A stretch of 47,112 nucleotides of DNA from Escherichia phage e4/1c, in the sequence record NC_024210.1; one strand, given 5' to 3'. The notes under the pieces are model-generated. The model saw only the letters and a program-made list of their open reading frames with translations. It did no database searches and was not told where the DNA came from. Positions 24,807 to 44,704 of the stretch are shown one piece after another (position 1 is the stretch's first letter; every line of letters begins with the position of its first letter). Both the position numbers and the translations under genes were made by a program.

Positions 24807-24879
24807 TAGGCAAAACCAATTGGATAAACTTAGCTACGGATGGCATAGTTAAACCACACAAACAGAGAGAGATATAGAA

Positions 24880-25074: not shown

Positions 25075-25077
25075 ATC

Positions 25078-26046: not shown

Positions 26047-26073
26047 AACAACATTAAATCGGTGAGGTATATT
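26031..26073 (+). promoter_or_regulatory. degenerate palindrome-type promoter unit upstream of erf
   Basis: CAGCACGAATAGCTA (overlaps exonuclease C-terminus), 22 bp, TATATT, then CCTCATCGACAACGAGAGGA. Confidence 0.4.
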
Positions 26074-26101
26074 TACCTCATCGACAACGAGAGGAAGAAA
26101 T

Positions 26102-26749: not shown

Positions 26750-26790
26750 ATTAATCGGGGCTTCGGCCCCAGAATAAAACGATAGTCATT

Positions 26791-27294: not shown

Positions 27295-27295
27295 G

Positions 27296-27718: not shown

Positions 27719-27728
27719 TGTAAAATAT

Positions 27729-27752
27729 AAAGCCCCTTTCGGGGCTTTTTTT
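27729..27752. terminator. bidirectional terminator between ssb and tail fibre gene
   Basis: agcccc-tttc-ggggct flanked by A-run upstream and T7 downstream. Confidence 0.7.
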
Positions 27753-30468: not shown

Positions 30469-30492
30469 TATGTAAATTCTCCATTTGTAAAA

Positions 30493-30507
30493 TAGCACGA
30501 ATTGCTA
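30493..30507. promoter_or_regulatory. palindrome TAGCACGAATTGCTA in 5' region of tail fibre gene (atypical placement)
   Basis: perfect copy about 25 bp upstream of tail fibre start codon, downstream of a TACAAT -10-like hexamer on the minus strand. Confidence 0.4.
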
Positions 30508-30532
30508 AAGTGGATTGTAGCATCTTTCAGGC

Positions 30533-30557
30533 ATAAAAAAACCTCCCGAAGGAGGTT
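30533..30557 (-). terminator. rho-independent terminator after primase gene
   Basis: minus strand cctcc-ttcg-ggagg followed by T8. Confidence 0.7.
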
Positions 30558-31482: not shown

Positions 31483-31534
31483 TTTCTTTAATCCAATGAA
31501 AAAGGTTGCACCGATTATGGCACAACCTTAATTG

Positions 31535-32008
31535 TTACTCTTTAGCTTTTCGTGCTGCTTCGTTTGCTGCTTTAATTTTTCGCCATGAGCGACACTCTGG
31601 TTTGGTGGCTAATTCAGCATCAGTAACCACGCGTAGCATGTGTCGCTTTTTGCAACGAAGAGTCAGAGGCTTACCGTTGCCGTCAAACTGAAGGTCTGGC
31701 CGGCAGAATGTAGCCCTAAATCCTTCACCAGTTCGCTTATATCGATTATGTGCAAGTTGAGCGCCGCGGGCTGAAATCATTCCTCGAGTGCACCACTCTT
31801 CCACGGTCTGGCGAGTAACCTTTAACTGCTTAGCGAGATTTGCCTTACTGCCATAGAAGTCCAATACAATCTCAAGTCGAGCCCTTAGTCCAGCCCTTAC
31901 TTCATCCTTTAATACATAGTACCCTGAAGGTCGTTTGCGTGGCTTTTTATCTTCCTTTCGGATGGTTCCGTTATTGCCGTTAAGAGTACGTTTATCGACT
32001 TGATTCAT
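31535..32008 (-). CDS. HTH DNA-binding protein, candidate transcriptional regulator
   Basis: 157 aa from ATG 32008 (RBS GAGGTGA); HTH-like SKANLAKQLKVTRQTVEEW; basic; divergent from helicase gene. Confidence 0.5.
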   Translation of the reverse strand: MNQVDKRTLNGNNGTIRKEDKKPRKRPSGYYVLKDEVRAGLRARLEIVLDFYGSKANLAKQLKVTRQTVEEWCTRGMISARGAQLAHNRYKRTGEGFRATFCRPDLQFDGNGKPLTLRCKKRHMLRVVTDAELATKPECRSWRKIKAANEAARKAKE

Positions 32009-32022
32009 TTTTATCACCTCAA

Positions 32023-32065
32023 TAGCACTTTTTGTTAAACATTAGTTTCATTGGTTGTTATTATA
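32023..32065 (+). promoter_or_regulatory. palindrome-type promoter unit upstream of helicase
   Basis: TAGCACTTTTTGTTA 32023-32037, about 21 bp, TATTAT, then AATCGAACGAAC leader; palindrome lies 15 bp upstream of divergent HTH gene start. Confidence 0.5.
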
Positions 32066-32101
32066 ACGTCAATCGAACGAACATGAAAGGCATTTAAAAA
32101 C

Positions 32102-34045
32102 ATGACTATGCGCTTGAAAACAATACAGAAACAGATTGAAGAAATGGGTGAAGACAAGATCAAAGAGATTCAAACTAAATTCACCTCATATAATGGCATG
32201 ATTCCTTATAGCTATCAGTGTGTAATGTATAATGAGATTGCCAAGCGTATTGGTAAATATAAGCACCCGTTCATCGCAATGGCTTCAGTATCAGCTGGTA
32301 AAACTCTAGTTTTTGCCATGGTCGCTAAGCGCTGCTCTGAGATTGGTTTGCCAATGCTTCTACTTGCTCGTCAGGCTGAGCTTGTTAGTCAGAATGCTTC
32401 TGAGATTTCAGATTATGGTGTGCCTAACTCCGTTTACTGCTCAGGTCTTGGAATTAAGTCATCTTATTTTCCTGTAATTGTAGGCTCTGAGGGTACAGTT
32501 GTTGGTGGCCTTGATAAGGCGCTTGGTGACTTCTGTCCTGCTGTTGTGGCAATAGATGAGTGTCATCATCTGGATGATCAAGATATTGCAGAAGCAATAG
32601 ACAATAATGAGACATCACAGCAAGCTAGAGATAAAGGCCGGAGCCAGTACACGATAATTCTCCTCACGTTAATGGAGAGATGCCGCGCTAAGTATGGGCG
32701 TGAACTTAGGATATTTGGCCTGACTGGCTCTCCTTTCCGCGGAACAACACCAATTGTTGTGGAGAACCTTAAGGAGCTTGGGTTCTGGCGTGAAACGGCG
32801 ACTAATATTGATACCAACTATCTGGTTGAGTTCGGCTCTGTTGTACCCACAAATTTCGGGTCTACTGATGGTGTTGGCTATGATCTGTCTGAGTTTGACA
32901 CTTCAGCAGATGATGGTGTGCAGGACTTCACGAAATCTCAGCTAGAGGCAATGGAGAAGAAGATTCAGCAGTCAGGCACAATGACAGCAGAGATAATGAA
33001 GAAGGTATGGTTGGCAGCAAAAGATCGTAACGGCGTTCTTGTAACTTGCGCAGGCGAGCGACACTGCAAGGAGGCCGCAAGCTACCTTCCAGAGGGTGAG
33101 ACTTACTGCATAATTACTGGCAAAACTGGAGAGAAGCAGCGCAAGGAGCTACTGGATAAGTGCTTCTCTGGGGATATTAAATTTTGTTTTCAAGTTCAAG
33201 CTCTGACTACTGGTGTGTCAGTTCCACCATGGGATACTAGTGTAATTCTTCGCAAGATTGGTAGCCTCACGCTCCTGGTTCAGCTACTTGGTCGAGGAAT
33301 GCGTAAGCTTAAGAAGCTCCATGAAGATAAAGGAATGGTCAAGAATGACCACCTTGTATTGGATTTTGCTGGAACTATGGATTCAATGGCATCCCTTTAC
33401 TTCAACCCAATACTTGAACAGGCCCAGTATCAGCTACGCAAAAGTAATGGTAAAGAGATGAAGCAGTGCCCTGTTTGCGGCACTGAAAATAGCTTCTACG
33501 CTCGTCGCTGTATGCGTGTTGATGAGAACAATAAAAGGTGCGAATATTTCTGGGTTAGCCGCACATGTGAAGACCAAAAAGACCCGAGGACAGGAAAGGT
33601 TACCGTGAAAGGCTGTGGAGTTCAGAATGACGTTGCAGCTAAGATTTGTAGAGGTTGTGATTGCACCCTTCTAGATCCGAATCTTAAGTTAAGCGGAAAA
33701 CATTACAGAAAAAATGATTGGTTTGACGTTGTGGATTTCAAGGTTGGACTAACAAAGAACCAATCAGGAATCATCTACAACTACGTCCTTGATGATGGCA
33801 TGGGTGGGACATTCAAAGCTCATGAGGTTTTCTTTGTAGAGTCTGACCATCGAGTATGTAAAACGCTCTGGTTGAACAATGGAATTAAAGGTCACGTAGT
33901 CGACATGAACGCTAAGCGATATATGGCTGCATATCGCAATGCTCGCAAGATTATGGAGTATGCGCAGTACATCCATGCTCCTAAGAGGGTAACTCACCGC
34001 AAGACCGCTAAAGGTGGCGATAATATTGCTAATAAGGAGTTCTAA
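32102..34045 (+). CDS. superfamily II DNA helicase with C-terminal zinc ribbon
   Basis: 647 aa; Walker A SVSAGKTLVF, DECH box VVAIDECHHL, motif VI QLLGRGMRK, C-terminal CPVCG ... CRGCDC. Confidence 0.8.
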   Translation: MTMRLKTIQKQIEEMGEDKIKEIQTKFTSYNGMIPYSYQCVMYNEIAKRIGKYKHPFIAMASVSAGKTLVFAMVAKRCSEIGLPMLLLARQAELVSQNASEISDYGVPNSVYCSGLGIKSSYFPVIVGSEGTVVGGLDKALGDFCPAVVAIDECHHLDDQDIAEAIDNNETSQQARDKGRSQYTIILLTLMERCRAKYGRELRIFGLTGSPFRGTTPIVVENLKELGFWRETATNIDTNYLVEFGSVVPTNFGSTDGVGYDLSEFDTSADDGVQDFTKSQLEAMEKKIQQSGTMTAEIMKKVWLAAKDRNGVLVTCAGERHCKEAASYLPEGETYCIITGKTGEKQRKELLDKCFSGDIKFCFQVQALTTGVSVPPWDTSVILRKIGSLTLLVQLLGRGMRKLKKLHEDKGMVKNDHLVLDFAGTMDSMASLYFNPILEQAQYQLRKSNGKEMKQCPVCGTENSFYARRCMRVDENNKRCEYFWVSRTCEDQKDPRTGKVTVKGCGVQNDVAAKICRGCDCTLLDPNLKLSGKHYRKNDWFDVVDFKVGLTKNQSGIIYNYVLDDGMGGTFKAHEVFFVESDHRVCKTLWLNNGIKGHVVDMNAKRYMAAYRNARKIMEYAQYIHAPKRVTHRKTAKGGDNIANKEF

Positions 34046-34434
34046 TGGTTAAGGTTTTTCACGACAAAACAAGCACGGACAAGGCTAAAGAGGTTGTTCA
34101 CCAAATAAATTCAATAGCTTGGGTTCGCCACAACCATCCAGAGATATTTGCTTTTCACGTGAAGAATGAAGGTCTCAAGTCTATCGGCACAGCAATGAAG
34201 GACAAGCAGGAGGGAGTAATTAAGGGTGTATCAGATATTCTACTGATTGGACCAAATGGCTTTGCCGCAATAGAGCTTAAGCGAGCAATAAAATCAGATA
34301 GCAAGGTTTCAAAGGAGCAAAAGGAGTTCCTGGAAAAGGTATCAGAAACAGGAGGTTACGCGGCAATCTGTTATGGGTTTGAAATGTTTAAGTTGGCAAT
34401 TGCAGATTATCTATCAAATAGCACGAATTGCTAA
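34045..34434 (+). CDS. VRR-NUC domain nuclease
   Basis: 129 aa; GVSDILLIGPNGFAAIELKRA ... KEQKEF pattern typical of VRR-NUC PD-(D/E)xK nucleases. Confidence 0.6.
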   Translation: MVKVFHDKTSTDKAKEVVHQINSIAWVRHNHPEIFAFHVKNEGLKSIGTAMKDKQEGVIKGVSDILLIGPNGFAAIELKRAIKSDSKVSKEQKEFLEKVSETGGYAAICYGFEMFKLAIADYLSNSTNC

Positions 34435-34461
34435 AGAGATTTCGCAAGGATGCGATATAGT
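34419..34461 (+). promoter_or_regulatory. palindrome-type promoter unit
   Basis: TAGCACGAATTGCTA, 22 bp, TATAGT, then TTCATCGAAACGAAGAGAGAG leader. Confidence 0.5.
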
Positions 34462-34492
34462 TACTTCATCGAAACGAAGAGAGAGAAACAAA

Positions 34493-34687
34493 ATGACTAC
34501 TATCTACACTGAAAAGCTGTACAAGTCACGCAAAACTGGTTATGAATATGAATTAGCAATCACCCCTGAGGGTTATATTCTTGATGATGGAGACGGTTAC
34601 TCATTCGAAGTTAGCCCAACATACAAAGATGATTTAGAGACTGTTAAAAACGCATTCGGCGAAAAATTTGATGAGGTATCAGAATGA
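34493..34687 (+). CDS. hypothetical protein (64 aa)
   Basis: ATG 34493 downstream of conserved leader. Confidence 0.45.
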   Translation: MTTIYTEKLYKSRKTGYEYELAITPEGYILDDGDGYSFEVSPTYKDDLETVKNAFGEKFDEVSE

Positions 34688-34911
34688 TGGCTATCTTTAC
34701 TTTTGAGAATCAATGGGAAGTATTCCAGACGATGGTTGTTGAGGAGCTCAGCAAAGCTAAGTATAACAAGGGTGATGCGTGGTATTTGGCTGCATCACTT
34801 GATATGAGTTTCGAGGAAGACTACCTGAACACCGATATAGAAACATGGCGTGAACGAATGATTGCTGATATCGAAGAAATGAAGAAAGATTGCCCGGAGG
34901 ATTTTTCATGA
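34684..34911 (+). CDS. hypothetical acidic protein (75 aa)
   Basis: ATGA start/stop overlap with upstream gene. Confidence 0.45.
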   Translation: MMAIFTFENQWEVFQTMVVEELSKAKYNKGDAWYLAASLDMSFEEDYLNTDIETWRERMIADIEEMKKDCPEDFS

Positions 34912-35108
34912 TTACTGCGACTTGCGTAATGACGAACGGCTCATTCACCCTGCTCAATGAGTATGAATTCAAACTTGACCCGATTAATGACCAGGTTGAA
35001 ATAGTTAGCGATGAAGGATTTGCATGGAAGTTACATAATGAATTTGATGGTTACTACGGGTGTAATGATGCGAAAGGTAAGCATGTAAGTTTTCTTGTTT
35101 ATGAGTAA
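34908..35108 (+). CDS. hypothetical protein (66 aa)
   Basis: ATGA overlap; start inferred at second Met of ORF 34890..35108. Confidence 0.4.
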   Translation: MITATCVMTNGSFTLLNEYEFKLDPINDQVEIVSDEGFAWKLHNEFDGYYGCNDAKGKHVSFLVYE

Positions 35109-35109
35109 A

Positions 35110-35152
35110 TAGCACTTTTTGTTAAAACTAAAATACAAGGATGGATTATATT
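35110..35152 (+). promoter_or_regulatory. palindrome-type promoter unit
   Basis: TAGCACTTTTTGTTA, 22 bp, TATATT. Confidence 0.5.
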
Positions 35153-35182
35153 AATTACATCAGCAAATGAGAGGGTTAAGAG

Positions 35183-35308
35183 ATGAAAATTGTAGACAAA
35201 GAGATGTTAGAGATTGCTCAGTCTTTCGCAAATGACGCAGTTAAGACTGGATCTGAATATTGCTGGATGTGCGCTCGAGAATATTTAAAAATGGCTTACG
35301 GCCTATGA
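35183..35308 (+). CDS. hypothetical small protein (41 aa)
   Basis: RBS GAGGG; below ORF-track cut-off; ATGA-coupled to next gene. Confidence 0.3.
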   Translation: MKIVDKEMLEIAQSFANDAVKTGSEYCWMCAREYLKMAYGL

Positions 35309-35544
35309 TAGTTGAAACCGGACGCGCCGCTGTATGGGCGCATTGTGGAGAGGCGGGATTGCAGGATGACATCAAGATGATAGGTAAATACTTTGATATT
35401 GATGACATATCTGTAGTTTTCAATGGGAAGTTTAGTTATATGAACCAGCGGCCACGCAAGTATGTAAGAGTTCCAGCAACGCCTAGCCTCGCAATGTATC
35501 GTGAGGAAGGTAAGAAGATATTTAAGAAAGGTGCGAAGAAATGA
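35305..35544 (+). CDS. hypothetical protein (79 aa)
   Basis: in-frame part of ORF 35260..35544 starting at coupled ATG. Confidence 0.4.
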   Translation: MIVETGRAAVWAHCGEAGLQDDIKMIGKYFDIDDISVVFNGKFSYMNQRPRKYVRVPATPSLAMYREEGKKIFKKGAKK

Positions 35545-35798
35545 ATTTACCTGGTCTAGATTTTGATGAGAGTAAGTATCAGGTTGTGTTTTTTGGTGAG
35601 AAGCCTTATCGGAAGATTCCTTTCTCTGAGTGGATTCCTCCGGACTACCTCGATGTACTGGTGCAAATTGAGATTGGTAAGGCTGAGTTGATGTACTACT
35701 CACCTGGCTGCAATATGATGATGCCTAGTGAGTATTCTCCAGCAATTGCTGCGCTTGAAACTGAGTTTCTTGATTACTGGCTAAAAGAAGTTAAATAG
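35541..35798 (+). CDS. hypothetical protein (85 aa)
   Basis: ATGA overlap; stop TAG is first triplet of next palindrome. Confidence 0.45.
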   Translation: MNLPGLDFDESKYQVVFFGEKPYRKIPFSEWIPPDYLDVLVQIEIGKAELMYYSPGCNMMMPSEYSPAIAALETEFLDYWLKEVK

Positions 35799-35838
35799 CA
35801 CTTTTTGTTAAAACATATCGCCAGGGATGGCTTATAGT
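35796..35838 (+). promoter_or_regulatory. palindrome-type promoter unit
   Basis: TAGCACTTTTTGTTA, 22 bp, TATAGT, then TCATCGAAACGAGAGG. Confidence 0.5.
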
Positions 35839-35866
35839 GTGTTCATCGAAACGAGAGGCGGCTCAG

Positions 35867-35935
35867 ATGAAAACATTACTACCATTGCTGGCAGTGCCAG
35901 TAACCTTTATAATCATGTACTTCATAACCTGCTAA
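35867..35935 (+). CDS. possible 22-aa hydrophobic leader peptide (uORF)
   Basis: ATG 8 nt after conserved ACGAGAGG RBS; MKTLLPLLAVPVTFIIMYFITC; ends 14 nt before main ORF start. Confidence 0.25.
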   Translation: MKTLLPLLAVPVTFIIMYFITC

Positions 35936-35949
35936 TAGGAAAATATAGA

Positions 35950-37077
35950 ATGGCTATCGCTAAAATCACTAACGAACAACTTAAAGAAGAACTGGCAAAC
36001 GGTATGACTAACAAAGCAATCGCAGAGAAGTACGGCATGAACATTCGTAACGTAGAACTGCGCCGGAGCAAGCTGTCAAAATCTGGCGAAGGCCACGGAA
36101 ACGAAGGCATAAAGAAGCTAGTTCCGGATGGATACATGGTTAAAGGCACTTCAACCATGATTGATGCAGAAGGTAACGAGAAGATTCGTTGGGTTAAGAC
36201 TAGTGTTGATAATGAACGCCTTGAAGAGATTATTACTCAGGCACGCGAAGCATTTTGCTCAGAACTTCCTAAGGCCGAGCTAGTTAAAAATGAAAATGTT
36301 AACTTTGATGAGACATTAACTCTTTACCCTGTATTTGACATTCATATTGGTATGATGGCCCACGCTCACGAAGCTGGCGAGAACTACGACACGGCAACAG
36401 CTGAAAAATTGATGAACTCATACTTTGATTACTCAATCAGCAAGGCTCAAAATTCAGAGAAGGCGGTATTACTGATTGGCGGTGACTTCCTTCACTCTGA
36501 TGGCCTTGACGCTGTTACACCAGCAAGTAATCACGTACTTGATCAGGATAGTCGATTTGCTAAGTTGGTTTACGTTGCAATTCGATCTCTTCGAGCTACA
36601 GTAACTAAAATGCTTATGAAGCATAAAGAGGTTGAGATTCAGGTTATTGAAGGCAACCACGACCAGGCATCAATGATTTGGCTGCGCGCTGCAATGGCTG
36701 CATTCTATGACAATGAGCCACGAGTCCATGTTGATGTAAGTCCTGCAATCATGCACAAGACTCGATATGGATCAACTTTGCTTGGTTATACACATGGCCA
36801 CACCATGAAGAAAGCTGAGGGTCGACTCGCTGCCATGGCTAATGATTATCGCAAGGACTTCGGCGAGTGTGAGTTCGTTTACTGCCACTCAGGTCACTTC
36901 CATCATGCAACAGTAACCGAGTGCACGCTTGGTATTGACGAAGTTCACCCGGCATTAGCAAGCAAAGATGCATACGCAGCACGAGGCGGATGGAGAAGTT
37001 ACCGTCAGGCAGCAGTGATTGTTTACCACAAAGAATTTGGCGAGATTGGTCGATTCATTTACCGTCCGGGGATGTAA
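35950..37077 (+). CDS. HTH-domain plus calcineurin-like metallophosphoesterase
   Basis: N-terminal GMTNKAIAEKYGMNIRNVELRRSKL (HTH-like); phosphoesterase motifs VFDIHIGMMAH, GGDFLHSDG, EGNHDQ, GYTHGH, CHSGHFHH; start at ATG 35950 because ORF-track start 35827 would lie inside the promoter. Confidence 0.65.
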   Translation: MAIAKITNEQLKEELANGMTNKAIAEKYGMNIRNVELRRSKLSKSGEGHGNEGIKKLVPDGYMVKGTSTMIDAEGNEKIRWVKTSVDNERLEEIITQAREAFCSELPKAELVKNENVNFDETLTLYPVFDIHIGMMAHAHEAGENYDTATAEKLMNSYFDYSISKAQNSEKAVLLIGGDFLHSDGLDAVTPASNHVLDQDSRFAKLVYVAIRSLRATVTKMLMKHKEVEIQVIEGNHDQASMIWLRAAMAAFYDNEPRVHVDVSPAIMHKTRYGSTLLGYTHGHTMKKAEGRLAAMANDYRKDFGECEFVYCHSGHFHHATVTECTLGIDEVHPALASKDAYAARGGWRSYRQAAVIVYHKEFGEIGRFIYRPGM

Positions 37078-37081
37078 TGAA

Positions 37082-37267
37082 ATGTTAAAAGAAATACTAA
37101 GAATAATCCTTGGGGACAAGAGAGAATGCAAAAAATGCAGATTCGAGTATATAGATGACACAGACGAAGGTTCATTCTATGAGTGCAAGATTTGCGGAAA
37201 TGAAGTTTTGCTTGGTAAAAGTGGCGTTGTTAAGCAATCTAGAGTAACCGACTGCGATTATGACTAA
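37082..37267 (+). CDS. zinc-ribbon protein (61 aa)
   Basis: CKKC ... CKIC. Confidence 0.45.
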   Translation: MLKEILRIILGDKRECKKCRFEYIDDTDEGSFYECKICGNEVLLGKSGVVKQSRVTDCDYD

Positions 37268-37268
37268 A

Positions 37269-37311
37269 TAGCACTAATTGCCAAAACACAAATCAAAAGA
37301 TGGGGTATATT
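37269..37311 (+). promoter_or_regulatory. palindrome-type promoter unit
   Basis: TAGCACTAATTGCCA, 22 bp, TATATT, then CCATCAAAACAAAACGAGAGGA. Confidence 0.5.
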
Positions 37312-37344
37312 TACTCCATCAAAACAAAACGAGAGGATACAAAG

Positions 37345-37530
37345 ATGGCTAAGTTCACACAATCAGATGCACAGATTGAAGTTAAAGATGTTGGTTTTGG
37401 TAAGACATTTCGGATTGCACAGGCTTACGGAACTAGCGAAGAAGATGTAAAGGTTGACACTATTAACCTTACTGCTAAGAATGCACGTGAGATCGCTTAT
37501 GCAATCCTTGCGGCACTTGGAGGGCGTTAA
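37345..37530 (+). CDS. hypothetical protein (61 aa)
   Basis: ATG 37345 after conserved leader. Confidence 0.45.
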   Translation: MAKFTQSDAQIEVKDVGFGKTFRIAQAYGTSEEDVKVDTINLTAKNAREIAYAILAALGGR

Positions 37531-37718
37531 TGTTGCAAACAATTAAAGCTGATATGGTAAAGGTGGGTGATGAGGTTTTGTTCTCAAATTGCCAACGGCA
37601 AAAAGTTAAGGCCACAAGCCTTGAGTATTACCCTAGCTGTACGTTCGTAATGATTAAGACCATGGGCGGTAACTGCTTCCCAATTAATGTAAACACACTT
37701 ATTTGCGTAAACCGTTAA
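37530..37718 (+). CDS. hypothetical protein (62 aa)
   Basis: TAATG overlap with upstream gene. Confidence 0.4.
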   Translation: MLQTIKADMVKVGDEVLFSNCQRQKVKATSLEYYPSCTFVMIKTMGGNCFPINVNTLICVNR

Positions 37719-37730
37719 GAGATTATCAAA

Positions 37731-37904
37731 ATGACTAAATTATTCTGCGTTAGCAACAAATCAAAATCACTGCCTTTCACTGTAAACAACCCTTACAGTG
37801 GTGAGTACCAGGGGGATGGTAATTACAAGATTTATGGCGATGACATGACTTGGATCTTCGCCCCGATTGATGGAGAATTGGTGGAATTCATTATCGCAGA
37901 CTAA
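37731..37904 (+). CDS. hypothetical protein (57 aa)
   Basis: not in ORF track; ATG 37731, followed by terminator. Confidence 0.3.
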   Translation: MTKLFCVSNKSKSLPFTVNNPYSGEYQGDGNYKIYGDDMTWIFAPIDGELVEFIIAD

Positions 37905-37924
37905 CTTATAAGAAACATCAACTT

Positions 37925-37952
37925 GAAAACAGGCGGCCTTTAAGGCTGCCTT
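37925..37952 (+). terminator. rho-independent terminator
   Basis: ggcggcc-tttaa-ggctgcc plus T8. Confidence 0.65.
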
Positions 37953-38019
37953 TTTTTCGTTTATGTCAAAGTTTAATATCTGGTATTATTTAATCAAATC
38001 AACTTAAAGAGGCCGCAAC

Positions 38020-38235
38020 ATGAAGCATTTCTATGACGCAGCCGCCTTGTCCGGTAGCGGAGTAGCTATGGGCGGCGGCTTATCTGACAATACAATCATC
38101 GGCATTATTGGCTTAATCGTAGCCGTGTGCTTTGGTATCTTTGGAGCATGGCTGCGATGGAGGGACAGTAAGGCGCTACATAAAGCACTTGAGGATGGAG
38201 ATATCCGTGAGGCAATGAGAATCAGGAGTAAGTGA
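38020..38235 (+). CDS. holin
   Basis: 71 aa; hydrophobic segment IIGIIGLIVAVCFGIFGAWL, charged C-terminus; RBS AAAGAGG; first gene of lysis cassette. Confidence 0.7.
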   Translation: MKHFYDAAALSGSGVAMGGGLSDNTIIGIIGLIVAVCFGIFGAWLRWRDSKALHKALEDGDIREAMRIRSK

Positions 38236-38717
38236 TGAGTATAAAGAATAAAGTTATTGGCGGGGCCTTAGGCTCCGCTATTGCTATAGCTGTACCATTC
38301 CTGAACAAGTATGAGGGCGTTGAGTATAGGCCATACAAAGATGTAGCTGGGGTGTGGACTATTTGCGCAGGCATTACTGGCCCTGACGTTATTCGTGGCA
38401 AGGTTTACACTCAGCGAGAGTGTGATGCACTCCTTATGAAGCACCTGTCAATTCATCGCTCCGCTGTTGATAAAGCCCTGAAGGTTGATGTTCCAGTTAG
38501 CACCAGGGCGGCGCTGTACAGTTTTTCATTTAATGTTGGGACCAATGCAATGCGCAACTCAACTGTTATCAGACTCATGAATCGCGGCGATATTCGTGGT
38601 GGATGTGAGGCGCTATCAATGTGGAATAAAATTAGCGTTGGTGGCAAGAAGGTTGTGAGCAAAGGCCTGGTTAACAGGCGAAACGCGGAGATTAGGCTAT
38701 GCGTGTCGGAATTATAA
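38235..38717 (+). CDS. SAR endolysin (GH24 lysozyme-like)
   Basis: N-terminal weakly hydrophobic GGALGSAIAIAVPF (signal-arrest-release type) followed by YEGVEYRPYKDVAGVWTICAGITG with Glu/Asp/Thr catalytic pattern of T4-type lysozymes. Confidence 0.75.
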   Translation: MSIKNKVIGGALGSAIAIAVPFLNKYEGVEYRPYKDVAGVWTICAGITGPDVIRGKVYTQRECDALLMKHLSIHRSAVDKALKVDVPVSTRAALYSFSFNVGTNAMRNSTVIRLMNRGDIRGGCEALSMWNKISVGGKKVVSKGLVNRRNAEIRLCVSEL

Positions 38718-39103
38718 TTATTGCAATCACATTGCTGACCGGTTGCTCTGTTATGTCAGCTATCTCTGATTTATTACCGAGTAAGGATGGCATTGAAGCA
38801 ACAGCGCAGGTTGGTGAGTCTAACCAGAAGACGGGCGTTGGATTATCTAGCCAGATAGATAAATCAAGTTCAGTAGAAAGCGATATGCGCAACTCAACTA
38901 ACAGGGACGTAGATTCATCAAGCCAAAAAAAGACCGCTGCTACTGGTCTCTCAGCAGGCACAATAACAGCTGAAAAGATTGAAATTCACAGCACTGAAAA
39001 CTCTGGGGTTGACTCATTGGTCTGGGGTATTCTTGCAGGGTTAGTTTCAGGCTTGCTAACTTACTTCGCTTTAAGATTTGCAGGGAACAAAAAAGGAGCC
39101 TAA
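38699..39103 (+). CDS. unimolecular spanin (u-spanin, T1 gp11-like)
   Basis: N-terminal lipobox LLTGC plus single C-terminal TMD SLVWGILAGLVSGLLTYFAL. Confidence 0.7.
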   Translation: MRVGIIIIAITLLTGCSVMSAISDLLPSKDGIEATAQVGESNQKTGVGLSSQIDKSSSVESDMRNSTNRDVDSSSQKKTAATGLSAGTITAEKIEIHSTENSGVDSLVWGILAGLVSGLLTYFALRFAGNKKGA

Positions 39104-39118
39104 TGGCTCCTTTCTTTT
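39088..39118. terminator. bidirectional terminator between lysis cassette and minus-strand block
   Basis: aggagcc-taat-ggctcct flanked by A-run and T-run. Confidence 0.65.
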
Positions 39119-39452
39119 ATGCGAACAGTTGGTCGTCTGTCATTTCTTTTATGGTCATCATCTCATTAGTGTACTTATCGCTCTCACCTTCAAGGCATCT
39201 GAAGCTAAATTCGAAAGGTCGCTTCGTGCTTCCTTTGCTCCAGTAACTGCCATTAACTCCATCGATGTAACCTTCAGTCATGCATCTTGCCAGAAACTCC
39301 TTTGACGCAGATGATGCAAAGTAACGCGTATTAACTCCAGCTGCCTTAGCCATTCTTTCACATTCTTTGTGGCGGTAAATGAATGCCGCCAGGTGCTGCC
39401 TGTTAAACCTTTCGTAGCTCTCGCAGAACTTGAACACATCAAGGATGAACAT
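39117..39452 (-). CDS. hypothetical protein (111 aa), last gene of ATPase operon
   Basis: 5 nt downstream of ATPase gene stop on the same strand. Confidence 0.5.
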   Translation of the reverse strand: MFILDVFKFCESYERFNRQHLAAFIYRHKECERMAKAAGVNTRYFASSASKEFLARCMTEGYIDGVNGSYWSKGSTKRPFEFSFRCLEGESDKYTNEMMTIKEMTDDQLFA

Positions 39453-39456
39453 TTAA

Positions 39457-41040
39457 TTACCCCAGCAGCCGTGGATTGATATATACCTTGTCACCAATCA
39501 GGCAGGTATAGTTTTTCTCATCAAGCATCGGCAGTAAGTGGTCTTTAATTTTAGCCATAACACCAGCCTGTGACTCGAAAGGTCGAACCTTACGCGCAGC
39601 TTCATAAAGTGAACGCAAACCCACAACTCCTTTACTGTTCTTGCCTTGCTTGATAAGGATATCAATTAACTTGTTCATCTCAGCGTTATCGCCAGCATGA
39701 CCAGCTGCGTTAGCTGAAGATAAGTAAGTCTTACTAAGTTCTTCAAACATCAACAAAGCCTCTTGCATGGTTTCTAGTTCAATCTCCCTGGACTTCTGCG
39801 GACTACCACCATTCTCGTTAAACCAGTTACGGATAGTATGCAGAACCGAAGCGAGGCGAATCACTTGCTTGTCCATTTTACCTAACGCGCCACGAAGCAT
39901 TGTATGTGAATACTTCCCACCATCAGCAAGGTGTGGCTCCATTTCCTGTCGAGCACGGTTAAGGTACTTCATTGCTGAGTTACTAACAGTCAACTTCACA
40001 TCTTGCTCACTCATAATTTCATGAACAAGACGGAAGTAATCAGCCTTCAACGCTCCGTCAATCGGCTCATATGTTGACTCGCCATTATCATCGACGAAAA
40101 CACGCTCACCAAGGAATGACTTTTCACGCACAAGCAAGAAACGTTCGGATACACCAATACCGCGAGCACCAGCATTCATGATTGCGACTATTGTTTCATC
40201 CTGCGCAATTACAGAAATACACCCCATAGCAATAAAGCTCATGTTGTTCTCTGCGTTCGCACGCGCGATAGATACGCTACCAGCATCCCAGGCCTTCAGA
40301 ACAAGCTCGCTGTTAGTTTTCTTCGAGCCATCACCGTAAGTCATACCAAGAAGTGAGTTAACACTTGTCGCTTCATCAGAAATCACGGAGAAGTTACCCT
40401 GGCGGTTGTTGATTCGCGCAAGACCTTCCGGTGTAGTATCAGATACCGGAAACACAATGTCGCACAGCTTTTCTAACTTCTCTTCCAACTCCTCTTTCTC
40501 TTCGAATAATCCAGCCATCTCAGATGGTGACTTCTCTTGCTTCATTTCTTTTGCCAGGGCTGACAATTTAGCCATAATCTTCTTACGGTCACGCTTTCGA
40601 ATCTCATTTAGTCGCTCGGTCTCAGAAATCATTGGTGCGAGTGCAAGTGAGTTAATTGCTGATTTACCAGTTGATGGTGGCTGACTGGTGACTACATACA
40701 GTGATGTTGGTTGTTGAGTTCCGTGATACTCAACCGTAAAGCGACCTAACATAGCTGCCGAGACGCAACCAAGGAAGTGCATATAAGCAGATGATTCAGG
40801 AAACTGAACAGAACGAGCAGTATTGCTTGATAGTTTGCCAACTACATCATAGTCGTTACCCAGCGAGATAACAGGATACTTGTCGCCAGTAGAATCAATC
40901 TCAACCGGAGCTTTCCAGAATGATGCGCTCTGGCGATAACCGTTCGCATTAATAGCAACACGTAAAGGAGTTAATCCATCCTGAGCGGCAACAGCCATTA
41001 CTTGTTCAACAGTCAATTTGTCATCATTAAAATCAAACAT
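39457..41040 (-). CDS. P-loop NTPase with shared N- and C-terminal modules (paralog of 44156..44704)
   Basis: Walker A VTSQPPSTGKSA, Walker B FSVISDEA; N-terminal 42 aa about 70 percent identical to ORF 44156..44704; start ATG 41040 (MFDF) or 41046. Confidence 0.65.
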   Translation of the reverse strand: MFDFNDDKLTVEQVMAVAAQDGLTPLRVAINANGYRQSASFWKAPVEIDSTGDKYPVISLGNDYDVVGKLSSNTARSVQFPESSAYMHFLGCVSAAMLGRFTVEYHGTQQPTSLYVVTSQPPSTGKSAINSLALAPMISETERLNEIRKRDRKKIMAKLSALAKEMKQEKSPSEMAGLFEEKEELEEKLEKLCDIVFPVSDTTPEGLARINNRQGNFSVISDEATSVNSLLGMTYGDGSKKTNSELVLKAWDAGSVSIARANAENNMSFIAMGCISVIAQDETIVAIMNAGARGIGVSERFLLVREKSFLGERVFVDDNGESTYEPIDGALKADYFRLVHEIMSEQDVKLTVSNSAMKYLNRARQEMEPHLADGGKYSHTMLRGALGKMDKQVIRLASVLHTIRNWFNENGGSPQKSREIELETMQEALLMFEELSKTYLSSANAAGHAGDNAEMNKLIDILIKQGKNSKGVVGLRSLYEAARKVRPFESQAGVMAKIKDHLLPMLDEKNYTCLIGDKVYINPRLLG

Positions 41041-41079
41041 TATCATCTCTCTCTAAATGCCCCGAAGGGGCTTGATTAT

Positions 41080-41259
41080 TTACTTGATACGAACTTCAAT
41101 CATCTGACCTTTATGAGGAAGATACAGCTTTGCGCGACCTCTAATCATTACGGTGATGATATTCTCCTTAAGGTCAACGTGAAGTACTTTGCGGAACAGA
41201 GGCCCCATTTTTACCATCATGCCAGGTTTGATGTTTTCGATAGTAGTCATGATATCCAT
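41080..41259 (-). CDS. hypothetical small protein (59 aa), first gene of ATPase operon
   Basis: not in ORF track; MDIMTTIENIKPGMMVKMGPLFRK...; hairpin separates it from ATPase gene. Confidence 0.35.
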   Translation of the reverse strand: MDIMTTIENIKPGMMVKMGPLFRKVLHVDLKENIITVMIRGRAKLYLPHKGQMIEVRIK

Positions 41260-41297
41260 TTTTTAGCCCTTTTAATGTATTTCGTTTCGATGAAGAG

Positions 41298-41341
41298 AAT
41301 ATATCAATTTTTGTTGTTAAGTTCTTTAGCAAAAAGTGCTA
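41298..41341 (-). promoter_or_regulatory. palindrome-type promoter unit for ATPase operon
   Basis: minus-strand TAGCACTTTTTGCTA, 23 bp, TATATT, TTCATCGAAACGA. Confidence 0.5.
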
Positions 41342-41458
41342 TTAAAGACCAACCAGACATTTGCCAACTACAACAGCGATTGCGCCCATGAAGCCAAAGA
41401 AACCAAACTTAATTACTTGTTCCATTACCGCATCAACTGCTTTAGAGATGTTTTTCAT
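41342..41458 (-). CDS. small membrane protein (38 aa)
   Basis: MKNISKAVDAVMEQVIKFGFFGFMGAIAVVVGKCLVGL; start chosen at ATG 41458 with RBS AAGGTGA. Confidence 0.4.
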   Translation of the reverse strand: MKNISKAVDAVMEQVIKFGFFGFMGAIAVVVGKCLVGL

Positions 41459-41495
41459 TTTGTTCACCTTAGTGTTTGTCTTCTTGATGGAAACA

Positions 41496-41539
41496 AATAT
41501 ACCCGCCGAAGCGGGTAGTGTCATTAGCAAAAAGTGCTA
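41496..41539 (-). promoter_or_regulatory. palindrome-type promoter unit
   Basis: minus-strand TAGCACTTTTTGCTA, 23 bp containing hairpin cccgc-ttcg-gcggg, TATATT. Confidence 0.45.
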
Positions 41540-41540
41540 T

Positions 41541-41894
41541 TTATGAATATGAGCTTTCGAACTTGTAGAGGCCATAACCAACATCAAAGCCAACTTCTTC
41601 ATCACGCGTCAACTGCCAGCCCTCGCCGTCTTCATCATAAATATACCCAGCGTTACGACCAAGTGATGCAGTCATTGATACCTGGTAACGCTTACCCTTA
41701 CTGAAACTCTTCTTGAGTGGTGACTTGTGGTTCACGAAAGTGCAAAGCAAAGTCTTGGTCTTGACGTAACGACCCCGGCCAGTGAGATTTTGCCATTTAC
41801 CATGAATCTTGATTTGCTCAATACCATCTTTAACGCGAGCTTTAAACAGATTGTTATCTGAGCTGATCCAGTTTTTAGTGATAGTGGTAGCCAT
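41541..41894 (-). CDS. hypothetical protein (117 aa)
   Basis: RBS AAGGAAAA; second gene of a two-gene unit. Confidence 0.5.
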   Translation of the reverse strand: MATTITKNWISSDNNLFKARVKDGIEQIKIHGKWQNLTGRGRYVKTKTLLCTFVNHKSPLKKSFSKGKRYQVSMTASLGRNAGYIYDEDGEGWQLTRDEEVGFDVGYGLYKFESSYS

Positions 41895-41919
41895 TACTAT
41901 TTTCCTTTTTGGTTTGTTA

Positions 41920-42222
41920 TTAGTTAGCGTTATGACGTTCGATATAGTCGCGGATTGTTTCGCCTACGCTTTTAGCGGCACCAAAAGTGCCCTTTGCGTG
42001 GCGTGAGTCGCGGTACGTCTGGAAGAATTTACGAGCGATGTTTGCGAACATTGAACCAGTCACGCGAGCATCACCAAAATTTGTTTCGATAGCGTTGCTG
42101 ATGCCATCCTTGAACTCATTTTCAGTCATGAACATCTCTGCCATGCCAGCAGTCTCGAAAAGATTAGCTAATTCATTCATGTTGTTATGGTCGGCGGCTG
42201 TAAACAGGTTCATGTTAATCAT
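41920..42222 (-). CDS. hypothetical protein (100 aa)
   Basis: RBS AAGGAA after conserved leader. Confidence 0.5.
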   Translation of the reverse strand: MINMNLFTAADHNNMNELANLFETAGMAEMFMTENEFKDGISNAIETNFGDARVTGSMFANIARKFFQTYRDSRHAKGTFGAAKSVGETIRDYIERHNAN

Positions 42223-42256
42223 CTTAGTGATTCCTTAGTTTCGTTTCGATGAGATG

Positions 42257-42299
42257 AATATACAGTAAAAGCCCCGAAGGGCTTTAGCGATTCGTGCTA
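42257..42299 (-). promoter_or_regulatory. palindrome-type promoter unit
   Basis: minus-strand TAGCACGAATCGCTA, 22 bp containing hairpin, TATATT, TCATCGAAACGAAAC. Confidence 0.5.
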
Positions 42300-42449
42300 T
42301 TTCTTTGCTGCTTTTGCAATTGCCTTCTGGACGATATTGAAGCTCTCAATCAAATCTTCTTTGAAGTAGTCACCAACAGGCCAACCCTTACCGCTGTACT
42401 TGGCTATGGTTTCTAGATCGTAATAGTTCAAGTCAGATGGCTTTAGCAT
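42297..42449 (-). CDS. hypothetical small protein (50 aa)
   Basis: not in ORF track; start adjacent to upstream stop (TAAATG); stop TAG is first triplet of palindrome. Confidence 0.3.
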   Translation of the reverse strand: MLKPSDLNYYDLETIAKYSGKGWPVGDYFKEDLIESFNIVQKAIAKAAKK

Positions 42450-42689
42450 TTACTTCACCTCATCAAAAGTTGCAACACCAGGGATAAACATTCCAACCTT
42501 CCAGCCAGAGATAGCAATCCATCCAGAATCGTGCTTGTGCGGTCTCTCGGCGCCATTAATTACCCACTCGTTCGGGATTGTCTTACCGTTAATTATTAGA
42601 GGCTCAGCGTCGTATATAGAGCCTTTTACGAATGGTGTTAAAATCTTCTTGTCGGTGCTTTGGATGACGTTAGTGCAGCTAATCTTCAT
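42450..42689 (-). CDS. hypothetical protein (79 aa)
   Basis: ATGA overlap with upstream gene. Confidence 0.45.
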   Translation of the reverse strand: MKISCTNVIQSTDKKILTPFVKGSIYDAEPLIINGKTIPNEWVINGAERPHKHDSGWIAISGWKVGMFIPGVATFDEVK

Positions 42690-42916
42690 ACCAACACCTC
42701 GAACTCTTCATCAGAAATCTCACAAAGTTCATGTTTATAGATTGCAATAATATCATCGAAAACCACATCTTTTTTAGACTGAATCTGATAGGTTCCAGTG
42801 ATCATCTTGAAAGCTACAGCAATCTCACCTTCTTCATAACCCATCTCGCGCAAGCTTGTTGAGTCTTCATCATACTTATAGTCAACGTTAGTTAATTTAA
42901 TTTTTACCTGTTCCAT
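42686..42916 (-). CDS. hypothetical acidic protein (76 aa)
   Basis: first gene of minus-strand block; RBS GAGGAGAT. Confidence 0.5.
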   Translation of the reverse strand: MEQVKIKLTNVDYKYDEDSTSLREMGYEEGEIAVAFKMITGTYQIQSKKDVVFDDIIAIYKHELCEISDEEFEVLV

Positions 42917-42943
42917 GTCTATCTCCTCGCTGTTGATGTAATT

Positions 42944-42987
42944 AATATACCCAATCAGGACTGAATGTTCATTAGCAAAAAGTGCTA
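42944..42987 (-). promoter_or_regulatory. palindrome-type promoter unit (first of minus-strand block)
   Basis: minus-strand TAGCACTTTTTGCTA, 23 bp, TATATT. Confidence 0.5.
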
Positions 42988-43011
42988 TTCGTTCGATTTA
43001 TGGATTGTTGC

Positions 43012-43105
43012 GGATATTGCAATGATTAGATTCACCTTTGCGCACATAGCAATATTGCATCTATTGCAATGATTTTCTGTACTGTTGCGAAAATGGCAAT
43101 GATTG
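43012..43105. repeat. cluster of short palindromic iteron-like sites (ATTGCAATGATT family)
   Basis: TATTGCAATGATT at about 43015 and 43063, GCAATATTGC at about 43049, GGCAATGATT at about 43094. Confidence 0.6.
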
Positions 43106-43179
43106 ATGGATTGATGGAATGAAGGAGGACGCATCAACTGGTTGGTTGGTTTTCTCGCTCGCTCGGAGATAATCATTTG

Positions 43180-43330
43180 TATACGCGTAGTCCGCTGTCT
43201 ACCGATTGTCGACCGTATCCAGATTTACATTTGATACGCCTTGATACAATCCATATACATTAAAACATCCTTATATATAAAGGACTTAGACTATTATTAT
43301 TATTATATATAGTATTATGTATATATGGCG
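43180..43330. repeat. regulatory repeat region B (homologous to 23316-23470)
   Basis: TATACGCGTA plus 60-bp near-identical AT-rich segment shared with region A. Confidence 0.7.
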
Positions 43331-43381
43331 TATCCTTTGTACGCCACTATATAGGTGGGTTTGCTTAAATTTCTATTTTTA

Positions 43382-43398
43382 TTCCTACATTGTAGGAA
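43382..43398. promoter_or_regulatory. perfect 17-bp palindrome TTCCTACATTGTAGGAA with adjacent half-site
   Basis: perfect inverted repeat; half-site TTGTAGGAA repeated at about 43409. Confidence 0.5.
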
Positions 43399-43545
43399 TG
43401 GGACTACGTTGTAGGAAAATATAGGGTGTATCGCCAGAAATGCACTAATAATTTGGATACGGCGAGTACGCCATGACTACATCCAGCAATGAAGCGGCCT
43501 ACGGATGAGAAAATGTAATTATTTATCGAATACATAAAAAATACC

Positions 43546-43574
43546 TTGATATACACGTATCTACTTGCTATAGT
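43546..43574 (+). promoter_or_regulatory. sigma70-type early promoter (TTGATA, 17 bp, TATAGT)
   Basis: canonical spacing; followed by CCATCGAAACG leader and gene at 43614. Confidence 0.6.
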
Positions 43575-43613
43575 CACTCCATCGAAACGCGATAAAAAAC
43601 GAGAGGAATTAAA

Positions 43614-44156
43614 ATGAGCAAGTCAACACTTGGTGAAGTAATTCGATTCATGGCTAAAAAAGCACTCCAGTCAGAGAGCAAGGAGTGCAGAGTTCCAGTT
43701 CGTTCTATATTTAAAGAGGTGCGCGGAGAGGATTACCCAGAGGTTGACGTTAATGAGAAGGATGGATTAAAGAAAACAATTAAAAGTCGATCAATGACTG
43801 AGTTAAAAAACTCATACATTTACAATACAGTTTCACGCATGACTGAGCTGAGAGAAGCGAATGTTAGAGCTAGATATAAATTCATCTGGCTTGATGAAGA
43901 CAAAGAGGAGACAACCCCAGCTGCGTATGACGGTGACGGCGCAGATAAATACTTGGTAATCTATATTGAGAATGGCTCAGTCGAACCCAGGGCAAAGCAA
44001 AAGGAGAAGGCAAAGCAGGAGCAGGCCGCAATCGATAGGTTTAAGGCTCGACTTCTCAAGCTATCACCTAACGTGCTGGAGTTTGAAGGCGATGAGCTGA
44101 CTGGCGCAGTTAAGGCTATCCGCATGTATCAAGAGATGATCAAGGAGTTTAACTAA
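43614..44156 (+). CDS. hypothetical early protein (180 aa)
   Basis: RBS GAGAGGA; first gene after promoter. Confidence 0.5.
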   Translation: MSKSTLGEVIRFMAKKALQSESKECRVPVRSIFKEVRGEDYPEVDVNEKDGLKKTIKSRSMTELKNSYIYNTVSRMTELREANVRARYKFIWLDEDKEETTPAAYDGDGADKYLVIYIENGSVEPRAKQKEKAKQEQAAIDRFKARLLKLSPNVLEFEGDELTGAVKAIRMYQEMIKEFN

Positions 44157-44704
44157 TGTTTGATTTCGACGAAGATAAGTTAACTGATGACCAGGTGATG
44201 GAAGTCGCCAGGCAAGATAACCTGCCGCCACTTCGTGTGGCAATCAATGCTAATGGATACCGCCAATCATTCAAGTTCTGGCCGAGCGCCGAAGAGATGC
44301 TGTGCGTCAAGTTGAGCTACAAATACGGCGTCGTAGTGCATAAAATTAAGCACTTATGCGGCAATACAGGAATGCTTTACGTGAGCCAGCTATACCGGCA
44401 GATCAGAGAGGTCCAGCCATTCGTTGGTCGTGATGACATATTCAACGACCTTAGTAATATCATTCTGCCGTCACTCCAGGACGCCGGAATCACATGCCGG
44501 ATTGGCGATCAGGTGTTTGCGCATCCGTACCTGGTGGAAATGGATGAACGAGACGTGTACAGATGGTGCAGTCAGTACCTATCCGACGCACCAAGCTCAC
44601 ACTACGTGCGACCGCAGACAACAATCCATGGCTATGATGCCGATGAGGTGGAGAAGGCCATCCAGTTCTACCGGAAAGCGAAAGCTCTCCTGAATGGTGA
44701 ATAG
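44156..44704 (+). CDS. short paralog of P-loop NTPase gene (N- and C-terminal modules only, no ATPase core)
   Basis: MFDFDEDKLTDDQVMEVARQDNLPPLRVAINANGYRQS matches N-terminus of ORF 39457..41040; C-terminal LY..R.V.PF...LP.L...TC.IGD.V..P also shared. Confidence 0.6.
   Translation: MFDFDEDKLTDDQVMEVARQDNLPPLRVAINANGYRQSFKFWPSAEEMLCVKLSYKYGVVVHKIKHLCGNTGMLYVSQLYRQIREVQPFVGRDDIFNDLSNIILPSLQDAGITCRIGDQVFAHPYLVEMDERDVYRWCSQYLSDAPSSHYVRPQTTIHGYDADEVEKAIQFYRKAKALLNGE

Follow-up and report, generated by a model that had tools for sequence, protein, structure and literature searches.

Introduction

What kind of locus lies behind the lysis cassette of Escherichia phage e4/1c, and what starts its transcription? 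This phage is a Rogunavirus of the T1-like family Drexlerviridae, and the window analysed here, the whole 47,112-nucleotide (nt) stretch of record NC_024210.1, is a complete T1-like phage genome, in which nine minus-strand open reading frames (ORFs), numbered here g1 to g9, occupy positions 39117-42916. A first-pass annotation of the window had read these genes as an accessory host-takeover or anti-defence block, driven by four palindrome-type promoters and set apart from core replication. Based on the comparisons reported below, we propose that the block joins a conserved helicase operon to a fringe of variable accessory genes and is not an accessory locus as a whole, a view that has high confidence for gene content and promoter anatomy. 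The block, its repeated promoter element and its helicase family are already known, and the annotations of relatives contain most of the features first noted in it. What appears to be new is the reading of the repeat as a class II marbox promoter, since nothing relevant on the marbox together with T1-like phages was found in the literature searched.

Four promoters of one general type drive the block

All nine ORFs were found at the positions first assigned to them, and the layout of four transcription units is real, with promoters P1 to P4 and with terminators inside P2 and P3. Unit 1 runs from P1 through g1-g2-g3 to the terminator inside P2, unit 2 from P2 through g4-g5 to the terminator inside P3, and unit 3 consists of P3 and g6, while in unit 4 P4 drives g7, g8 and g9, with a weak hairpin after g7. 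This last unit ends at a bidirectional intrinsic terminator (39092-39113, both directions), which is common to the block and the convergent lysis cassette and agrees with the annotation of Rogunavirus AHP42, the closest relative. The packing of the units is very tight, in that g3 stops on the very TAG that belongs to the following TAGCAC, while P4 starts 1 base past the stop of g6.

The promoters are built on the motif TAGCAC-N5-(T)GCTA, four minus-strand copies of which stand in the block at 42987, 42299, 41539 and 41341, each with a TATATT 20-21 nt after its ...GCTAAA/T. In P1 (42944-42990, minus strand, as for the other three), the 15-mer GCACTTTTTGCTAAT at 42985-42971 follows AATA and is separated by a 21-nt spacer from the -10 TATATT at 42949-42944; a fair -35-like hexamer, TGAACA, lies 16 nt upstream of the -10, and transcription is predicted to start near 42937, at the A of CATC. 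P2 (42257-42300) has the 15-mer GCACGAATCGCTAAA at 42297-42283, a 20-nt spacer, the -10 TATATT at 42262-42257 and no -35. P3 (41496-41542) carries the same 15-mer as P1 (GCACTTTTTGCTAAT, 41537-41523), the -10 TATATT at 41501-41496 and a fair -35-like ATGACA 17 nt from it. P4 (41298-41344) has the 15-mer GCACTTTTTGCTAAA at 41339-41325, a 21-nt spacer and an extended -10, TGaTATATT, with its hexamer at 41303-41298, and again no -35.

Across the window the motif gives 25 strand-hits against 2.7 expected, with no shuffle as high, and about 16 co-oriented copies of the element stand upstream of operons in the non-structural half of the genome. The general form of the cassette is AATA-GCAC-N5-TGYTAAA, then 20-21 nt, then TATAnT, with the start at the A of CATCGAAACGA. 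The block promoters are the phage's general promoter type and not the marker of an accessory locus. Of the palindrome-type promoters proposed in the first-pass annotation, the four repeat-bearing promoters stand, while the element proved neither a true palindrome nor special to the block.

The repeated element has the sequence and geometry of a class II marbox

The consensus of the marbox is GCAHWWWWTGYYAAA (PMC6900184), and it is bound by the monomeric AraC-family activators MarA, SoxS, Rob and RamA. When sites with at most one mismatch to this consensus were counted, the window held 14 against 1.5 expected, a Webervirus 18 against 1.1 and a Hanrivervirus 19 against 2.6, no shuffle being as high in any of the three, and T1 held 22. 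The count in the non-enteric Vibrio phage pYD38-A was 1, which is at chance level. That phage shares the DUF3987 helicase, the primase and a second helicase, and none of its 12 pairs of GCAY plus -10 carries RYYAAA. Because pYD38-A has the replication genes without the cassette, the cassette tracks the enterobacterial T1-like lineage and not the replication genes. Among the block promoters, P4 matches the consensus without mismatch, P1 and P3 differ at one position each and P2 at two.

In a logo built from 52 sites of four genomes, the element reads AATAGCAC[G/T]WWTTGYTAAAac at -51 to -31, followed by G at -14, TAtaaT at -12 to -7, and C(-1) A(+1) and then TCGAAACGA, and all the exactly specified bases of the marbox consensus are invariant or nearly so. 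The orientation is equally regular, since the four block copies and nearly all others with a correctly spaced -10 run in the same direction as the gene downstream. Most sites have 20 nt between the 15-mer and the -10 (20-21 overall), which places the centre at about -40/-41 if the -10 is taken as -12 to -7; the starts themselves are predicted, and no mapping of them in Drexlerviridae was found in the literature searched. In Escherichia coli the promoter of micF, the best-studied one of class II, has GCACTGAATGTCAAA, 20 nt and TAGAAT, with the annotated RNA 5' end 7 nt beyond, and class II sites in general are in forward orientation and clustered near -41, with a canonical -10 and no -35 (PMC10268841, PMC8811837, PMC12052159). 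The phage cassette thus resembles the class II promoters controlled by MarA, SoxS, Rob or RamA, such as micF, in its 15-mer consensus, forward orientation, 20-nt gap, centre near -40/-41, canonical -10 and, within the block at P2 and P4, lack of a -35. It differs from them in being present in about 16-22 near-identical copies per genome of a virulent phage, in lying far nearer to the consensus, and in its extra invariant flanks, its transcribed leader CATCGAAACGA and a hairpin in or around the spacer.

The first-pass annotation had called the element palindromic, and a related explanation is that it is an operator for a dimeric activator encoded by the phage, either the 160-residue helix-turn-helix (HTH) protein of 31535-32017 (minus strand) or the DUF7174 protein of 43614-44156. 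In e4/1c, TAGCA-N5-TGCTA is indeed a 5+5 inverted repeat, the genes for the regulator and for the DUF7174 protein carry no cassette and so could be expressed first, and the element is more uniform than host marboxes. However, the mirror pairs -44 C/-40 T, -50 A/-34 A and -51 A/-33 A are each conserved and non-complementary, and many sites have TGTTA or TGCCA as their right half. This asymmetry therefore favours a monomer site over a dimer operator. Additionally, 75 bp of cassette give activity in uninfected E. coli, which a point mutation in GCAC lowers (PMC11578894), no AraC-type domain was found by Pfam in the unassigned e4/1c ORFs of at least 95 residues, and the 160-residue "transcriptional regulator" gives only a weak, sub-threshold match to a Cro/CI-type HTH. 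A true palindrome serving a dimer, weakened by the asymmetry analysis and by the variants in other genera, is accordingly considered quite unlikely.

The same element has been described in phage TLS as 21-nt direct repeats, aaATAGCACnnnTTGnTAAAA, noted also in T1, Rtp and Rogue1, with its function left open and with a stoperator, an enhancer site and an UP-like element listed as options (PMC11447400). The TLS repeat agrees with the e4/1c element in sequence, in orientation and in lying about 76 nt from start codons, whereas the TLS paper drew no link to the marbox, to a fixed -10 or to embedded hairpins (PMC11447400). In the non-structural region of the window (22000-38900), sigma70-consensus sites are depleted, with 22 found against 39.1 +/- 6.2 expected from shuffles, and ordinary -35/-10 pairs seem to be avoided there; this depletion agrees with the scarcity of ordinary promoters reported for TLS.

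Two further observations concern the element and its leader. The initial transcribed sequence C(-1)A(+1)TCGAAACGA, 7 nt past the cassette -10s (for example 41291-41281, minus strand), is conserved in Rogunavirus, T1, Webervirus and Hanrivervirus and may serve as a leader that acts on promoter escape, on the stability of the RNA or on its translation. At 30495-30509 (plus strand), an orphan consensus element, GCACGAATTGCTAAA, has no -10 at the right distance; it stands reversed, just past the primase terminator and directly upstream of where the minus-strand tail-fibre gene (27751-30498) begins, and has a T1 counterpart near 34905.

The Bas11 promoter works with host factors

Evidence on the sign of the element comes from the Drexlerviridae phage Bas11 (MZ501085), in which the 66-residue product of gene 54 is non-essential and sets off the CapRelSJ46 defence (PMC11578894). 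A perfect cassette makes up the 75 nt upstream of this gene, and the "native promoter" cloned in pBR322 with primer TZ-58 starts exactly at TAGCAC. The native-promoter construct made Gp54 in uninfected MG1655, and the two promoter escape alleles -71mut and -37mut both reduced expression (PMC11578894). If the numbering is taken to run back from the start codon, -71 falls on the A in GCAC, and -37 on the base after the first T in the -10 TATCAT. Because the cassette is active in uninfected E. coli, host factors suffice, and we conclude with fairly high confidence that the element is a positive cis-element working with host factors. The Bas11 data thus argue against a stoperator and against an obligatory phage activator, and do not single out one host factor.

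These data bear on two further explanations. In one of them, which is an option of the TLS authors (PMC11447400), no transcription factor takes part, and the element is recognised by RNA polymerase itself, as a sequence of UP-like or displaced -35-like kind. The A/T-rich flanks, the T-run of the TTTTT subtype, the resemblance of TTGCTA/TTGTTA to TTGACA and the activity in uninfected cells (PMC11447400, PMC11578894) are all in keeping with it, but TTGYTA lies 22-23 nt from the -10, too far for sigma70, and the -71 mutation of Bas11 falls in GCAC, outside TTGYTA. The invariant GCAC, moreover, is not known as a part of the UP-element consensus, and the element lies further downstream than an UP element would; by position and by GCAC, direct reading is disfavoured, and we keep it as an unlikely rival.

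In the other, the repeats are negative elements, acting as roadblocks like the stoperators of mycobacteriophage L5, or else sigma54 promoters. The repeats are oriented with transcription and lie between genes (PMC11447400); yet mutation of the element lowers expression and does not raise it (PMC11578894), the phage is virulent, and the sole regulator candidate found is the protein with the weak Cro/CI-type match. A stoperator of the L5 type is contradicted by the Bas11 promoter mutants. The likeness to the sigma54 pattern TGGCAC-N5-TTGC is superficial, since the element reads TAGCAC-N3-TTGC, with AG in place of GG and with a block spacing 2 nt short, and a conserved -10 follows at a fixed distance. 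Both of these negative-element and sigma54 explanations are very improbable.

A marbox model and the points that weigh against it

Based on these findings, we propose that a monomeric host activator of the MarA/SoxS/Rob type would bind the element, Rob being the abundant and constitutive one, and that the bound activator would recruit sigma70 RNA polymerase to a promoter with a -10 only, the marbox replacing the -35. As the spacer would not be read for its sequence, the phage could house in it the intrinsic terminator of the preceding unit, so that each unit would be insulated and its level set by its own promoter. In the block, transcription would be started by the four copies of this general cassette, and we infer that it is early. 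That MarA, SoxS or Rob is the acting factor on the element seems somewhat probable from its sequence and spacing. The wider proposal, in which T1-like phages would have wired nearly all of their non-structural transcription to MarA/SoxS/Rob, regulators of stress and multidrug resistance in the host, through about 15-20 class II marboxes per genome, is one that we see as evenly poised.

In replacing the -35 by an activator site, such promoters would resemble the middle and late promoters of other phages, namely those with the MotA boxes of T4 and the Mor and C sites of Mu, which likewise have a -10 and an upstream activator site overlapping the -35 region. The activators are phage-encoded there, whereas here host factors suffice, at least at the Bas11 promoter.

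Several points weigh against the model. The element is far more uniform than chromosomal marboxes and has an invariant AATA upstream of the 15-mer, so that a different protein with similar specificity could be the one that reads it. At one position where the consensus has W, 20 of the 52 sites carry G. P1 and P3 read AAT and not AAA and have fair -35-like hexamers, so that an activator may matter little to them. Unstressed cells contain little MarA and SoxS, and Rob is reportedly largely inactive, and T1-like phages still grow well in ordinary cultures; moreover, we know of no rob, marA or soxS phenotype for these phages. The placing of the Bas11 mutations at -71 and -37 assumes that their names count from the start codon, and a contribution of vector transcription to the Bas11 plasmid experiment is possible.

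Few recognisable sigma70 promoters have long been known in T1-like genomes, and the function of the repeated element was still open in 2024, so that the marbox model offers a concrete and cheaply testable hypothesis, which would explain how T1-like phages transcribe their genes without a polymerase or sigma factor of their own. If it is true, phage gene expression should drop in a marA soxS rob triple mutant, and expression, perhaps with burst size and host range, should rise with bile salts, salicylate, oxidative stress and mar-type resistance mutations. The growth of common enterobacterial phages, some of which are candidates for therapy against E. coli O157 and Klebsiella, would then be tied to multidrug-resistance regulators, and engineering would gain compact cassettes that combine promoter and terminator in about 60 bp.

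Hairpins in the promoter spacers

The hairpins first noted between the repeat and the -10 of two promoters are real, with GC stems, UUCG loops and T-rich tails. The terminator hairpin of unit 1 (42268-42285, minus strand), AAAGCCC-TTCG-GGGCTTT followed by T, fills the P2 spacer and shares the AAA of the marbox; that of unit 2 (41500-41517, minus strand), TACCCGC-TTCG-GCGGGTA followed by TATTTGTTT, lies in the P3 spacer and takes the T-rich -10 region as its tail. In AHP42, terminators and promoters are annotated at the matching places. A third GC hairpin, GCCCC-TTC-GGGGC with a weak T tail, stands between g7 and g8 (41059-41071, minus strand) and may be a partial terminator or attenuator.

Such spacer hairpins occur family-wide. 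When the promoter cores of the four genomes were compared with shuffled sequence, a hairpin with z < -2 was present in 43 of 71 (mean z = -2.7), and in 33 of 57 under stricter site criteria. They are of two kinds. In the first, to which both block hairpins belong, a GC stem with a tetraloop abuts the -10 and uses the T-rich -10 region as its tail, which makes it the intrinsic terminator of the upstream unit. In the second, the stem holds the -10 in its loop, as in GGGGTA..ctatagt..TACCCC, and its arms vary from promoter to promoter and stay complementary, which suggests selection for structure; examples are 26033+, 37271+, 44704+ and 31555- in the window and most T1 promoters. Because no T run follows them, stems of this second kind are not intrinsic terminators. 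The suggestion that the hairpins couple termination to re-initiation is a reasonable one and extends to other promoters of the family.

The distal genes form a conserved helicase operon

Judged by gene order, the block corresponds in e4/1c to the leftward operons that follow the lysis cassette in all T1-like phages (ST1-ST10 in T1), and it is ordinary for such a phage. The genomes of e4/1c and AHP42 are collinear, with the small terminase first, then the structural, recombination/replication and lysis genes, and then the minus-strand block; the block region is 92% identical to AHP42 and relatives in Drexlerviridae, and the GC skew turns negative over 39-43 kb. Gene content was compared in 27 Drexlerviridae loci, namely T1, AHP42, one Webervirus, one Hanrivervirus and 23 loci of IMG/VR. 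In all 27, T1 included, g5, g8 and g9 keep the same order and strand.

The middle gene of this trio, g8 (39457-41040, minus strand), encodes 527 residues, or 529 from an upstream ATG, and corresponds to ST9 of T1 and to phrog_2373, "DNA helicase". Its DUF3987 match in Pfam is strong (E = 2.4e-42; 145.9 bits against a cut-off of 27), its translation shows a Walker A (PPSTGKS) and a Walker B (VISDE) motif, and tblastn found it in 924 phage records, which amount essentially to all of the T1-like group. Sensitive comparison has placed DUF3987 proteins among the superfamily 6 (SF6) MCM-related replicative helicases, with a C-terminal winged helix (PMC4889955), and the PriCT-DUF3987 protein AgaPH is a demonstrated 5'-3' helicase that binds its primase-polymerase (PMC11724360). 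The e4/1c protein is like AgaPH and the phage SF6 helicases of this family in its DUF3987 domain, its Walker A and B motifs, its small C-terminal domain and the presence of a primase in the same genome. It is unlike them in that no PriCT domain was detected in g8, that an N- plus C-terminal partial duplicate stands at 44156-44704, and that the primase is a separate gene. This last point weighs against a joint function, as the primase gene (30556-31482) lies 8 kb from the helicase gene and is neither adjacent nor fused to it. In the distant Vibrio phage pYD38-A, the DUF3987 gene adjoins the primase and the second helicase in a replication module. Searches of PDB sequences with g8 and with g5 gave no match. 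From its domain and motifs, g8 is most likely a replicative hexameric-type helicase that works with the phage primase of 30556-31482, and we infer its role in replication from this family membership. The 527-residue ATPase is thus a helicase of replicative type conserved family-wide, and for the distal third of the block the contrast that had been drawn with core replication is not supported.

The other two members flank it. The 117-residue g5 (41541-41894, minus strand), present in 27/27 loci, is a predicted beta-barrel protein, for which neither Foldseek nor sequence gave confirmation; the 111-residue g9 (39117-39452, minus strand; ST10 of T1, gp45 of Bas11) is a predicted winged-helix protein and lies directly downstream of the helicase in every Drexlerviridae locus. 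Because the order is the same in every Drexlerviridae locus compared, g5, g8 and g9 are, by this comparative evidence, core and not accessory genes, and the comparison flags g5 and g9 as likely partners of the helicase.

A paralogue of the helicase without its ATPase core is encoded in region B by a 182-residue ORF (44156-44704, plus strand; phrog_7327). Over its first 48 residues it shares 69% identity with the N-terminus of the helicase, and over residues 64-127 it shares 31% with the C-terminal domain; as a separate gene it is limited to Rogunavirus-type genomes. It might compete with the helicase for the same partner or DNA site.

The proximal genes form a variable fringe

The remaining six genes (76, 79, 50, 100, 38 and 59 residues) are, as first described, without assigned function, and they are patchy in relatives. 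The 76-residue g1 (42686-42916, minus strand, as for all six; phrog_5684) is found at 38-45% identity where it is present at all. The start of g2 (42450-42689; 79 residues; phrog_4448) overlaps the g1 stop in ATGA, and g2 is confined to Rogunavirinae-type loci, as g3 (42297-42449; 50 residues; phrog_4548) is to Rogunavirinae-type genomes. The 100-residue g4 (41920-42222; phrog_12926) occurs in the closest relatives only, at 5 loci. Both g6 (41342-41458), with 38 residues from its ATG, a hydrophobic C-terminal segment and its own promoter, and g7 (41080-41259; 59 residues; phrog_8121) are limited to the three closest relatives. From this distribution, g6 looks like a moron-type insertion between g5 and the helicase gene.

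When the ORFs in the 4.5 kb upstream of the helicase were clustered, many alternative families were found in the same slots. Many relatives (Bas11, Sd1 and 12 other loci) fill the slot that separates g5 from the g3-like genes with a family of ORFs of about 230 residues, whose member in Bas11 (10014-10727, minus strand) is annotated as a Dcm-like C5-cytosine methyltransferase, and the e4/1c slot holds the unrelated g4. Pfam scans gave no match for one member of this family of about 230 residues, nor for six neighbouring ORF families from relatives, the ORF of about 230 residues included. In the block itself, Pfam, NCBIfam and PADLOC gave no match for any protein but one of the nine, the PHROGs matches of the others were to families without a known function, and a PDB sequence search with g7 found no match.

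The corresponding blocks of T1 (ST1-ST10) and Bas11 (genes 45-55) share with that of e4/1c the place after the lysis cassette, the minus strand, the order of g5 homologue, DUF3987 helicase and g9 homologue, and small variable genes upstream with cassette promoters. They differ in that T1 has an HNH endonuclease inserted before the helicase and another set of small genes, and in that Bas11 has gene 54 and the gene annotated as a Dcm-like methyltransferase where e4/1c has g4, g6 and g7. By the Bas11 annotation, gene 54 is the second gene of the block; no sequence homologue of Gp54 was found in the e4/1c window. Escape clones of Bas11 that had lost gene 54 and its neighbours in large deletions were viable (PMC11578894), so that in Bas11 growth in the laboratory does not require the promoter-proximal part of the block. 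These deletions thus support the accessory reading for the variable genes only.

Whether the whole block could nonetheless be an accessory host-takeover or anti-defence locus, apart from replication and morphogenesis, has to be weighed on the same evidence. Six of its nine genes have no known function and vary in relatives, the dispensable CapRel trigger of Bas11 lies there and its authors suggest that it may inhibit another defence (PMC11578894), and the blocks of Bas11 and Sd1 carry the gene annotated as a cytosine methyltransferase. However, g5, g8 and g9 are universal in the family, g8 belongs to the replicative-type DUF3987 helicases (PMC4889955, PMC11724360), and the promoter type is genome-wide and not locus-specific. 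As to the anti-defence content that the first-pass annotation expected, no block protein matched a known anti-defence or defence family in Pfam, PHROGs, NCBIfam or PADLOC, and the link is positional only, through gene 54 of Bas11 and the gene annotated as a methyltransferase. That annotation had proposed a comparison among relatives and had taken conservation with core functions as contrary to its claim; in the 27 loci, g1, g4, g6 and g7 vary, as do g2 and g3 outside the subfamily, whereas g5, g8 and g9 are constant, so that for the distal third the outcome is the contrary one. The accessory reading thus stands for the six variable genes and fails for the conserved trio, and for the whole block it is doubtful.

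In the reading of a helicase operon with a fringe, g1-g4, g6 and g7 would be dispensable accessory genes, gained and lost by lineage and some of them with their own promoter, in roles that are presumptive. The comparison flags these six as the genes to screen for anti-defence activity.

The region between the block and region B

A divergent region of about 700 bp without ORFs (42917-43613) separates the block from region B. An Rfam scan of 38900-43700 found no RNA family. The region matches the position of the T1 genome ends and is rich in repeats, with a 47-nt tandem pair at 43008-43101 containing ATTGCAAT palindromes, TTCCTACATTGTAGGAA-type palindromes at 43381-43417 and GGATACG repeats; it may hold pac, origin or control sites. 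At its far edge, a strong sigma70-type extended -10 promoter (TTGATA, 17 nt, TATAGT; 43546-43574) faces the DUF7174 gene (43614-44156), which is without a marbox cassette.

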